From contig CAZMIT010000001.1 in the NCBI GenBank assembly GCA_964566495.1, positions 1-56,582 on the forward strand: a stretch of DNA of 56,582 bases, read 5' to 3'. This document shows positions 41,616 to 44,600 of the stretch, piece by piece. The position numbers and the translations under genes were made by a program. The DNA comes from an uncultured bacterium (GTDB lineage: Bacteria > T1Sed10-126). The notes under the pieces were generated by a model, which was given only the letters and a program-made list of their open reading frames with translations, was not told the DNA's origin and did not search any database. Position 1 is the stretch's first letter. The number at the start of each line of letters is the position of its first letter.

Positions 41616-44600
41616 TTAAAATTGTTCGAGATCGGGTAGTTGTTCCCGCTGATCATTGTCCGGCTCGTCTTCGTCCAGAACATCCAGCTCTTCAAGTTCC
41701 TCTTCTACTTCTTCCCGGTCTGGTTCGGGGGCCGCAAAATCTCTCTCCTCAAGTGCCGGTGAAGTTATTGTAAATACCGGCTCCAGGTATTCGTCGTAAA
41801 AATCTGGATCAACACCATGCTCGATTAAAATTTCACGACAGATTTCCAGATCACGGATCATTTCAAGTCCCTGCCGTTTTTCAATCAAAGCCTGAGCAGC
41901 ATCCGGATCGATATTTTTAATACTCATTAGCTCTTCGGCGGTTACCATATTTACATCCACTTCTAACTCTATCTCATGTGCCAATAATTCACTCAACACT
42001 TCGTGATCTACAGCCGGCACCTCTAACACGTCGTCAAGACTTAAAAACGGTCCGACTTCTTCACGATATTCTATGATCTGGCGAGCAATTTGCTCACGCT
42101 CTTCCGCTTCTTCAGCTAATCCTTCAAGCCGGGTAATCTGGTGAATTCCATCAATATTCAGATTTATGGGCACCGGAGTAATCTGATGAAGCTGCTCGCT
42201 GATCATCCGGGTAGTCCGCTCAGCATCGGCAGGATCTTCTATGACATGGGGCGTGATAAAGAAAATTAGTTCGTTTTTACTGACAGTCTCTTGACTGGTT
42301 TTGAATAAATTGCCAATAACCGGTATTTCCCGAAGTAACGGAATTCCGAATTCACTGAAAGAAATTTCATCTTCAATTAGTCCCCCCAGTACAACCGTGT
42401 GACCGTCCTGTACAAGAACTGAATTTTCGATTCTGTTTTCATCTCTTCTGTCGTCCCCTACAAAATCATCCTTTCTTAATTCCAAATCCATTCGAACAAA
42501 ACGATCCCGGGTTATAGTGGGAGTTACACTCAACATTGTTACGGCGTCCCGCTCCCGCTGCTCTGGGACACGCTCTCCGATGGGTCCAACCATCTCATCG
42601 TAAAATTCTGTCTGCCCTTTACTAAAAACCGCCGACCTATTATTAATTGCCGATATCTGCGGTTTAGCCATTATCTCAGTTTCACGTTCTTCTTCCATAA
42701 AACGTAAGACAGCATGAAATTGATCCTGATTGAGTATCGCGTGAAACTCTTCCCCTCCCAAATACCCACCACCGGATTCCACTAAACTAACGTCCTCTTC
42801 CAACGGTGACTGATCGGGATCAAAGATCCATCGTGCCCCATATTGCTCTTCCTCATCCAACGTATATTCAAGAATAATTCCTTCAATGAAAACTTGTCGC
42901 TGCCATTGATCAAGTTGTTTAATTAATTCTTCCACCTGCGGCACAAGATTCTGAGGGGTTGAATAAATGATTGTGTTTGTGGGCCCATCATGGGAAAAAG
43001 AGACGGCAAAGTCAGAGACATCCGCCCCCTCCGCCTCCTGCAGCGTTTCCACAATCTCCTCGGCACGGGTGTTTCGCAGCTGATAGACGTTTGTAACTAT
43101 TTGCGGTGAATCCACTTCCTCAATCAGCTTGCGATAATATTCAATATTATCTTGGGGAATTAATATTGAAAAGCGGTGGTCCCCTTCGTAAAGAATACGT
43201 CCTATGTTTCGGTCGTCAAGTTCACTGGCCAGGTCAGAAGCGTCAACAAAGCGGGGCGAATAGGTGAGCACTTCATGATCAACAGTTGCCATTTCTTCCA
43301 GCTTCTCAAGCAACCGGCGTATAAACCTGGCTTCATTCTGTGAAACCACCAGCACCAACAGGTCCTCTTCCGCGTATAGAACCCGGGGACGTTCTTCCAG
43401 CTCATCGTCATAAAACTCGTGCATATCCTCATAATAATCTTCCAGGTCGTCCCCCAGTTGATCCGGCTCCACCTGCCGGGGAGTATAGGTGATTATCTCC
43501 CGACCGTCGTCAACTTCGATGTCACGGTCTACTTCTTCTAAGAAGCCCTCCAGCCGGTCCAGGTAAGCCGGTTCAGTGGAGGAAAGGAGAAAGGCGGCCT
43601 GGGCGGGGATAGTAGTTTGAATAGTTATTCCGCCCATCCTGTCGATTAAGGAAGCCGCTTCTTCAAAGTGTATATTATGGACGCTTACCCAGCGCCAGTG
43701 TCGATCATCTATATACTCCCCGGGCCGGCGTTTCATCGCTTCCATCATCTCAATAGCGATTTCTTGGATTTCCGGGGGGGCAAAAAGTAAAATACTCTCC
43801 AGCGTCTCCACCGGCACAATCGTTACCTGATTAAGGTAATCCTCTATTTCTCGTTCTATTCGCAAATCCTCGAGGTCCCCCGGGTCTTCTATATCGACGT
43901 CAACGTCAATTTCATCGAGATCAATAGCCTGTCCTCCTAAAATAGCAGTTACCTGATCAGCTATTTGCTCGACGTCATAACCTTCCATTTCTACAAACCG
44001 AAAGTGGTCACTGATGACGCCGGGGGCATCAAGCTTGTCCACCAGGAGCTCAATTCGAGACAATAAAGTTGGATCGCTATAAATCAGCAGGGAATTGGCG
44101 GCTATATTAGCAACTATTTCGCCTCGTCCGGTAGGTAAAAGTTGATCAATTTCCTCGCGCAACTGCTCCGGGTCCCTGTATTGAAGCCGAATAACAGTCA
44201 CATCAAAGCGTTCGTCCGGCTGATCTATCCCCTCAATCACTTTCTTAAGCTGACGCTGGTTGCGAGCGTAGTCCGTAACCACGATAGCGTTTCGACGATC
44301 ATCAGCAAAAACCTCCCCTTCCTCGGACATCAGGGCGCCCCGCAGATCACTCGCCAGCCTTTGGGCCTCATCAAGGAATGACAGCGAATATTGAACAGTA
44401 ACCATGTTACTACCGGGATGCAGATCTATTTCCTCCGGCTCGACCACCGGCACCCCTTCGCGACGCACCTGAGCAGCACTAACAATTCTTATCACATTAC
44501 CATCGCTAACGCGAGCTAAATCATGCATGGCCAGAATTGTATCGAGCGCCCGCAGCGCCGATACTTCATCAAGGTTTATGGATACCCTCATGTCAGACAG

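Follow-up and report, generated by a model that had tools for sequence, protein, structure and literature searches.

How is the outer-membrane pore of a DNA-uptake pilus coupled to the protein that receives DNA on the periplasmic side? In model bacteria, uptake across the outer membrane depends on the PilQ pore and on a separate periplasmic protein, ComEA, which is thought to ratchet DNA inward, and the spatial coupling of the two is still inferred from microscopy. The question is raised in a particular form by a stretch of 56,582 nucleotides from an uncultured bacterium of the GTDB lineage T1Sed10-126 (GenBank assembly GCA_964566495.1, contig CAZMIT010000001.1, positions 1 to 56,582; this whole stretch is hereafter called the window), in which one gene encodes a giant PilQ-like secretin that ends in a tail of ComEA-like helix-hairpin-helix (HhH) modules. 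The comparisons described below show that a double (HhH)2 module of ComEA ancestry has been joined to a PilQ-like secretin encoded within a DNA-uptake pilus cluster, and that this fusion is real, conserved and, as judged from its substitution pattern, selected. Our analysis further suggests that the tail is most likely a periplasmic collar, which would serve for the weak multivalent holding of DNA or for the docking of ComEA.

A ComEA-type module at the end of a giant secretin

From the N-terminus, the secretin (Table 1) carries a signal and a tetratricopeptide repeat (TPR)-like repeat, an acidic linker, AMIN, Big_1, N0/STN and several Secretin_N domains, the Secretin core and the HhH tail. 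On the whole protein, Pfam gave 122.9 bits for Secretin (PF00263), 127.7 bits for Secretin_N (PF03958, four stretches) and 41.6 bits for AMIN, together with weak matches for Big_1 and N0/STN; a PF00263 barrel preceded by Secretin_N domains is the arrangement by which the secretin superfamily is recognized. An AlphaFold2 (AF2) model of aa 1100-1570, with a mean predicted local distance difference test score (pLDDT) of 79.8, retrieved solved GspD and PilQ structures in Foldseek at best E-values of 1e-17 to 1e-19, the matches to GspD, PilQ and InvG spanning 1e-14 to 1e-19. The protein falls under the cutoffs of the NCBIfam models for both PilQ (TIGR02515, 213.8 bits against 284.35) and GspD (TIGR02517, 269 against 351.35). 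It resembles PilQ in having an AMIN domain and a pilMNOP-like neighbourhood, with PilM_2 and PilO matches upstream, although neither PilN nor PilP was recognized by Pfam among the upstream genes. In contrast to PilQ, it does not end at the secretin domain.

The sequence-only reading of this DNA had described a 204-residue tail after the core, holding two stretches similar to a ComEA unit that recurs five times in the neighbouring paralogs. These observations were borne out. The motif LIFFITPHVIEDP occupies aa 1397-1409 of the secretin and is followed by exactly 204 residues; HHH_3 (PF12836, gathering cutoff 27 bits) matches the tail in two stretches, scoring 45.4 bits when the whole protein is searched and 51.7 bits (E 1e-13) when the tail is searched alone; and the two ComEA paralogs contain three and two HHH_3 units. 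The interval assigned to the modules (41814-42158, corresponding to aa 1434-1548) lay in the right region but was too short, missing the first three residues of unit 1 and the last helix of unit 2.

The tail consists of a helix of about 21 residues, two ComEA-type (HhH)2 units and an acidic end of 49 residues. The helix and the two units together make up the full module (about 41766-42230), and the acidic end is conserved down to 41619. In the AF2 model that included the core, the helix (predicted for aa 1409-1426) comes directly after the last barrel strand with a pLDDT of 87-93; its family motif is '..SDEL.QITP.P'. Unit 1 aligns with the ComEA of Bacillus subtilis and Geobacillus stearothermophilus and with EEPD1. 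Unit 2, which is conserved across the secretin family, matches on its own only the first half of the HHH_3 profile. The single-unit scores in Table 1 compare with 73-77 bits for single units of the neighbouring ComEA paralogs, and the NCBIfam ComEA models both scored below cutoff on the secretin (TIGR01259, 28.3 against 152.35; TIGR00426, 25.6 against 53.1). The T2SSK profile (PF03934, cutoff 24.2) gave 27.0 bits on the isolated tail and 20.6 bits in the whole protein, and the PsbU profile (PF06514) gave no match on the tail. Near the extreme C-terminus, an LP[DEG]L-like motif is found also in the relatives P0122, L005 and L006 and may be a short docking motif.

On the evidence of profiles and modelling, the tail is homologous to the (HhH)2 DNA-binding domain of ComEA and is predicted to adopt the same fold. 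The AF2 model of the tail, built from an alignment of ten family tails, has a mean pLDDT of 85.9 (85-97 in both units) and a predicted template modelling score (pTM) of 0.73; in it, the two units are held together by small beta-bridges and form a single compact body, not a string of separate beads. Its top PDB match in Foldseek is Geobacillus ComEA (8dss_B; probability 1.0, root-mean-square deviation 2.3 Å over 62 columns), with PsbU at ranks 2-4 (probability 0.80-0.84) and the GspK homologue XcpX at rank 7 (0.38). For the modelled tail of 171 aa the best Foldseek E-value is weak (0.098) owing to the small size of the domain, and the structural matches were weighed only jointly with those of the profiles. 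When compared with all PDB sequences, the family profile retrieved EEPD1 at 2.6e-14 and the ComEA entries 8dss and 8dfk at 1.6e-8 and 7e-7, followed more weakly by TEFM, Tex and Thermus ComEA (2duy, 3.5e-3), GspK (0.1) and PsbU (0.2). The resemblance to ComEA, whose absence would have refuted the sequence-only reading, was recovered by structure and by profile.

An exhaustive HMMER scan of 1.84 billion representatives recovered the window protein itself, fragments, and further giant proteins whose C-termini match the tail over its whole length. These giant relatives are P0122 (1651 aa), P0124 (1612), P0127 (2126), P0130 (1726), P0149 (2228) and P0191 (2110); AMIN, Secretin_N repeats, the Secretin core and HHH_3 were found in all six, and Big_1 in five. 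A scan of GTDB species genomes with a four-sequence tail alignment yielded seven loci with the tail, the closest being PWHN01000040 (76% tail identity), from the metagenome-assembled genome of isolate T1Sed10_126 in the candidate phylum so named. Proteins across the cluster are 69-94% identical to this relative, which suggests that the window belongs to the same phylum. A word-indexed protein search missed every secretin-HHH_3 protein, the query included, although representatives are present in the same collection, and its negatives are uninformative; used with the core, it returned ordinary secretins only, at no more than 35% identity. In public records the proteins are named 'secretin N-terminal domain-containing protein' or 'hypothetical protein', and fragments 'helix-hairpin-helix domain-containing protein'.

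In total, giant secretins ending in this tail occur in at least 10 independent assemblies, among which the tail shows 33-76% identity and can be aligned from end to end. An error of assembly or gene calling, by which a separate comEA-like gene was joined to the secretin through a frameshift or a chimeric contig, was considered since the contig is metagenome-assembled, but can be dismissed as next to impossible: the frame is continuous from core to tail in these assemblies, which come from NCBI, ENA, Logan and JGI, and the window has neither a stop codon nor a change of frame between the two. The covalent fusion proposed by the sequence-only reading therefore holds, being uninterrupted in many independent assemblies and set within a conserved pilus/comEC/comEA cluster, and the related secretins, which could have refuted it, carry the same tail. 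Its remark that it knew of no described example agrees with our literature search, in which no paper describing a secretin-HhH or secretin-ComEA fusion was found (subscription journals being thinly covered), but the fusion is not unique, since it occurs in at least 15 database clusters belonging to two secretin families. It is a variant of known components, the PilQ secretin and the ComEA domain, and not a new category.

Identity to the related locus L001 amounts to 74-82% in the tail, 61% in the barrel core and 82% in the N-domains. The ratio of non-synonymous to synonymous substitution rates (dN/dS, Nei-Gojobori method) is about 0.13 for the two units and about 0.10 for the whole gene; both are rough values, dS being saturated (1.1-2.2) and undefined for two regions. 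By this measure the tail is under purifying selection. The sequence-only reading had left room for 'structural relics', and a decaying, functionless remnant of an old comEA-pilQ fusion would be in keeping with degenerate hairpins and with units that score 23-32 bits where those of the neighbouring ComEAs score 73-77. Such a remnant is nevertheless very improbable, and was rejected, given that the tail is conserved across relatives and better conserved than the core with respect to L001, that its dN/dS is low and close to that of the whole protein, and that its fold is confidently predicted. This is an old domain fusion, and the giant AMIN/Big_1 secretins that it sets apart as a family come from T1Sed10-126 and from related uncultured bacteria. 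Several members of this family carry an additional third unit, tethered through about 200 aa of flexible linker. T1Sed10-126, a candidate phylum in GTDB for which the name 'Salsurabacteriota' has been proposed (bioRxiv 10.1101/2024.03.10.584303), consists of halophiles whose proteomes are acidic. The proteins of the window are strongly acidic (isoelectric point, pI, 4.15 for the secretin and 4.0-4.3 for the ComEAs), which fits a salt-in halophile.

A second family of giant secretins (1.5-3.4 kaa), comprising P0183, P0227, P0180, P0141, P0275 and locus L008, and taking in partial proteins from a metagenome-assembled genome of Candidatus Hydrogenedentes, carries three to four C-terminal HHH_3 units. 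These score 179-227 bits; Pro-rich linkers keep them apart, and the conserved junction motif MEEELNRYKYLVNFPVDWSGRRW precedes them. Their hairpins all depart from the G-h-G type (h, hydrophobic), the sequences being PGMT, PGIT and PSIT. A metagenome scan for this family found one locus, L008 (secretin at 63-5003, plus strand), where the secretin is followed downstream by a toxin-antitoxin-like gene pair and then by two prepilin-type genes; no comEC was in view beside the secretin of this locus, the only one of the family that was fetched. The attachment of ComEA-type units to a secretin is recurrent, and the attached units are a distinct non-G-h-G subclass.

The pilus and competence gene cluster

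Related loci were compared only over the part of the cluster covered by each contig. Within these limits their gene order is that of Table 1, from the pilM-like gene to the second comEA, and in two loci a UvrD-like helicase gene comes next after comEA. The upstream pilus-assembly genes (46481-53599) are present wherever related contigs reach far enough, and all related loci that reach this position upstream have the Ig-repeat protein (35-81% identity) placed between the secretin and the genes on the pilO side. On the other side, comEC follows the secretin in 6/6 related loci extending downstream, and comEC is in turn followed by two comEA paralogs wherever the contig of a related locus is long enough. 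Since pilus-assembly and DNA-uptake genes lie together in one conserved cluster, the secretin probably serves a DNA-uptake pilus, and the gene content points to a dedicated DNA-uptake pilus machine. HhH modules are present in it at three anchoring levels, namely the secretin tail, the lipoprotein-type ComEA2 and the transmembrane (TM)-anchored ComEA1. The N-terminus of ComEA2 consists of the lipoprotein-type signal VKYFVVCLTALALVFTLGC (..FTLGC), followed by an acidic and Pro-containing linker of about 55 aa.

Table 1. Features of the secretin gene and its cluster, in cluster order (positions in the window; aa, residues of the secretin unless a protein length is given)
Feature	Position	Strand	Evidence and remarks
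PilM-like gene	50996-53599	minus	Pfam PilM_2, 121 bits
pilO	50435-50992	minus	Pfam PilO, 35.7 bits
Unnamed 233-aa gene	49733-50434	minus	
1008-aa Ig-repeat protein	46481-49507	minus	Sub-threshold Pfam Big_1 and Filamin only
Giant PilQ-like secretin gene	41616-46457	minus	Open reading frame (ORF), 1613 aa
Secretin beta-barrel core	42237-42698	minus	aa 1254-1407; Pfam PF00263
Conserved post-core helix ADAERTTRMISEQLHQITPVP	42168-42230	minus	aa 1410-1430; 82% identity to L001
ComEA-type (HhH)2 unit 1	41964-42167	minus	aa 1431-1498; HHH_3 31.8 bits alone; pLDDT ~90
ComEA-type (HhH)2 unit 2	41766-41960	minus	aa 1500-1564; HHH_3 23.0 bits alone; pLDDT 93-97
Acidic, probably disordered C-terminal end	41619-41765	minus	aa 1565-1613; ends LPDLEQF; 77% identity to L001
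tm398, two-TM protein with GAF-like C-terminal domain	40383-41579	minus	Weak Pfam GAF_2
Nucleoside diphosphate kinase (ndk)	39863-40276	minus	tblastn matches, 52-93% identity
comEC, inner-membrane DNA channel, 1003 aa	36642-39653	minus	Pfam Competence, 123.8 bits, and DUF4131
comEA paralog 1 (ComEA1), N-terminal TM anchor and three HHH_3 units	35729-36607	minus	HHH_3 204 bits; HHH 110 bits
MBL349, stand-alone metallo-beta-lactamase-fold protein with N-terminal TM	34503-35552	minus	
comEA paralog 2 (ComEA2), lipoprotein-type signal and two HHH_3 units	33721-34359	minus	HHH_3 152.8 bits

The next gene downstream of the secretin, both in the window and in 6/6 related loci that extend past the secretin 3′ end (40-94% identity), encodes tm398. 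This protein of 398 aa is composed of a first TM segment, a periplasmic stretch of about 150 aa, a second TM segment, a coiled coil and, at the C-terminus, a GAF-like domain that is very conserved. The conservation of tm398 exceeds that of the secretin (94% identity to L001 and 40-58% to the others), and the protein is a possible candidate for a partner of the tail or for a regulator of the machine.

Some further features of the cluster may be recorded. The ndk gene lies between tm398 and comEC in 6/6 related loci covering the region; its constant presence in a pilus/competence cluster is unusual. MBL349 lies between the two comEA genes both in the window and in the related loci that reach it, and shows similarity to the C-terminal portion of ComEC (23% identity in L005). 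The pilM-like ORF, at 867 aa, is far above the usual length, and its PilM_2/FtsA-type match falls into two segments (aa 17-244 and about 578-642), implying a large insertion or a fused extra domain.

Placement and possible function of the tail

The N-domains and C-termini of secretins are periplasmic, and the S-domain, the segment that follows the core in type II secretion system (T2SS) secretins, lies on the outer face of the barrel in published structures. By analogy, the tail should form a collar outside the barrel and under the outer membrane, not a plug or a ratchet in the mouth of the pore, which makes the placement at the 'periplasmic mouth' favoured by the sequence-only reading doubtful. 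Since secretins are assembled from 12-15 subunits, two units in each would give 24-30 ComEA-like units per pore.

We give a probability of about 0.4 to the reading that this collar holds DNA weakly and multivalently and hands it to the canonical ComEAs. The reading is based on the ancestry of the tail, its genetic context, the basic orthologues, the tethered extra units of relatives and the precedent of EEPD1. A role as a periplasmic ratchet, acting on DNA as it comes out of PilQ, has been proposed for ComEA (PMC3879209). In the mechanism that we envisage, the assembled pore would carry its 24-30 units around the barrel, beneath the outer membrane, as the outermost station of a DNA relay that would lead from the secretin tail to the lipoprotein ComEA2, then to the membrane-anchored ComEA1 and finally to ComEC. 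With their non-canonical hairpins, single units would be poor DNA binders, and incoming double-stranded DNA (dsDNA) would be held by avidity before being passed to the canonical ComEAs, in a manner comparable to the cooperative (HhH)2 domains of EEPD1. For the hairpins of the window, which are rich in Asp, direct binding of DNA would need bridging by cations in a high-salt periplasm, and in this copy docking of ComEA may have replaced direct binding. A stronger form, in which the secretin itself would be the DNA receptor and its ring of 24-30 units would, in this salt-in halophile, capture or retain dsDNA through Asp-cation-phosphate bridges instead of glycine hairpins, is put forward only tentatively.

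Several observations weigh against the holding of DNA by the tail. Its position after the core would place it, on the S-domain analogy, outside the barrel and away from the path of the DNA. Alignment of single units shows that none of its four hairpins is of the G-h-G type: the second glycine is absent from all four and replaced by Asp in three. The degenerate sequences quoted by the sequence-only reading are present as it wrote them. Hairpin 1 (aa 1445-1456) reads E-G-L-A and then contains an acidic insertion of 8 residues (7-10 throughout the family), and the helix that follows is lengthened. Hairpin 2 (aa 1481-1484) is P-A-V-D (P/S-G-I-T/N/D in relatives), hairpin 3 (aa 1515-1517) N-I-D (G/N-I-D/T in relatives, with G in P0124 only) and hairpin 4 (aa 1548-1550) G-V-D (G-V/I/M-S/N/D in relatives). 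The hairpin-centred HHH model (PF00633), which matches the ComEA units, matched neither tail unit. The second glycine is kept in 10/10 hairpins of the window's two ComEA paralogs (x-V-G-P or G-I/L-G-P), as it is in the ComEAs of B. subtilis, Geobacillus and the relatives L001 and L003, so that a DNA-binding constraint is visible in this proteome and absent from the tail. Hairpins of the PG-h-T type are also those of the non-DNA-binding relatives PsbU and GspK. In Vibrio cholerae ComEA, the substitutions G60V, G60E and K63E abolish DNA uptake and transformation, and G60A is tolerated (PMC3879209). By this standard, the alignment makes the tail units of the window poor candidates for canonical DNA binding. 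Finally, the HhH region of the window protein has a net charge of -26 and is more acidic than the protein average.

These points are tempered by others. Of all residues, Asp, Asn and Gly most readily accept a left-handed turn conformation, and the geometry of the tail hairpins may thus survive the loss of glycine. The hairpins of EEPD1 show the same non-GhG pattern (G-h-T/S/N) in the unit alignment, and its (HhH)2 domains, which do not bind DNA alone, are nonetheless required for cooperative binding of dsDNA (PMC12988330). As to charge, the bona fide ComEA units of the window are equally acidic, which makes net charge uninformative on DNA binding there. The tail of the non-halophilic relative P0122 has a net charge of +18 and a pI of 10.8 in a protein that is near neutral as a whole, and is as basic as the canonical ComEA units of its own genome (-2 to +9 per 60 aa).

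Alternatively, the tail may be a protein-docking module that makes no contact with DNA and tethers a partner to the secretin, by pairing with the (HhH)2 units of ComEA1 or ComEA2, with tm398 or with the Ig-repeat protein. We hold this possible without favouring it, and it is nearly as good an account as the DNA-holding collar; the two are not mutually exclusive. It would explain why G-h-G has been lost systematically in both secretin-HHH_3 families while the residues of the fold core (N-cap Asn, Ala, Tyr-Arg, Gly-Pro-Phe) are retained, and why an aromatic stretch after hairpin 4 (F-Y-D-E-Y-L-E-P-V-F in the window) is conserved in the family as YY..YL.PIF. The protein-binding HHH_3-like modules of PsbU and GspK are among the fold matches, fixed neighbours are at hand where contigs extend (the two comEA paralogs after comEC, and tm398 after the secretin), and heterodimerization of (HhH)2 domains is reported for XPF-ERCC1 and Mus81-Eme1 (PMC12988330). 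However, the best sequence matches are proteins that handle DNA (EEPD1, ComEA and Tex), not PsbU or GspK; the strongly basic tail of P0122 would be unneeded by a pure protein adaptor; and the (HhH)2 domains of EEPD1 self-associate negligibly (PMC12988330). For the Asp-rich copy of the window itself, docking may be the better description.

The position of the tail, directly after the core as in the S-domains of T2SS and type III secretion system (T3SS) secretins, suggests yet another role, that of an S-domain analogue derived from a recruited HhH fold, which would promote assembly or stability by stapling neighbouring subunits or by binding a pilotin-like factor. Known S-domains contact the adjacent monomer and bind lipoprotein pilotins (PMC6532946); the first helix of the tail is confidently predicted beside the last barrel strand, a short conserved motif stands at its extreme C-terminus, and, as a weak hint that this helix may correspond to one of an S-domain, the longest Foldseek alignments were to S-domain-bearing GspD (AspS-GspD 5zdh, 451 columns, as compared with 334-366 for PilQ). 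We nevertheless consider this role unlikely. No sequence similarity to any S-domain was found when the family profile was compared with PDB sequences; the module measures about 155 aa plus the acidic tail end, as against about 40-60 aa for an S-domain; and the competence-pilus PilQ is described as normally devoid of one (bioRxiv 10.1101/2020.03.03.975896). Such a role would also leave the ComEA ancestry, the tethered extra units of relatives and the exclusive association with comEC and comEA unexplained.

Comparison with known systems

A selected fusion of a ComEA domain to a secretin, encoded beside comEC and two differently anchored ComEAs, amounts to a natural experiment on the coupling of PilQ and ComEA. 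If the tail binds DNA or ComEA, the site of the first periplasmic hand-off would be fixed; if it binds neither, it would be a clear example of how a DNA-binding fold came to serve as a structural element in a secretion pore. Should the secretin itself prove to be the DNA receptor, it would be the first outer-membrane channel with a built-in DNA-uptake ratchet, and at least two uncultured phyla would have hard-wired a partnership between PilQ and ComEA that is non-covalent in model organisms. The family also documents competence-type machinery conserved in a candidate phylum, T1Sed10-126, that has no cultured member, and the acidic protein of the window and the basic P0122 form a pair of orthologues for the study of how contacts between HhH domains and DNA adapt to molar salt.

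Among known secretins, the type IVa and competence-pilus secretin PilQ is one of the closest counterparts. The window protein shares with the PilQ of V. cholerae (6w6m, Foldseek E 8e-18 to the window model) and Pseudomonas aeruginosa (6ve2-4) the AMIN, N0/STN, Secretin_N and Secretin core domains, and has pilM and pilO upstream. It differs in being two to three times longer, with Big_1 and many N-domains, and in its 204-aa C-terminal extension, the competence PilQ being described, as noted above, as lacking an S-domain. The S-domains of GspD, PulD and InvG are likewise post-barrel C-terminal extensions that start with a helix; the tail, in contrast, is about three times larger, has an HhH fold and is associated with no known pilotin. 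The second secretin family, also from uncultured diderm lineages, repeats the succession of a Secretin core and ComEA-type units with non-G-h-G hairpins, but with long Pro-rich linkers where the units of the window are packed, with higher HHH_3 scores and with another junction motif.

As regards the module itself, PsbU of photosystem II and the alpha-domain of GspK/XcpX are HHH_3-like modules among its fold matches that do not bind DNA, and GspK is part of a type-IV-filament machine operating through a secretin; both match less well in sequence than ComEA and EEPD1, and neither is attached to a secretin. EEPD1 (9yi2; PMC12988330), to which the tail profile matches best among PDB sequences, has in common with the tail G-h-T/S/N hairpins and multiple units, which in EEPD1 act cooperatively, but it is a nuclear protein of eukaryotes in which these units are fused to an EEP domain, and it is unrelated to secretion or DNA uptake. 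ComEA/ComE1 (PF12836; 8dss, 8dfk and 2duy) shares with the tail both the (HhH)2 fold and the signature of the single unit (N-x-N cap, A..I..YR, G-P-F and a second hairpin), and the tail is encoded beside bona fide comEA genes and beside comEC. From ComEA, which is soluble, lipid-anchored or TM-anchored, the tail is set apart by its covalent attachment to an outer-membrane secretin, by the predicted packing of its two units as one rigid body (pTM 0.73), and by hairpins that have all lost the second glycine, the first of them bearing an insertion.

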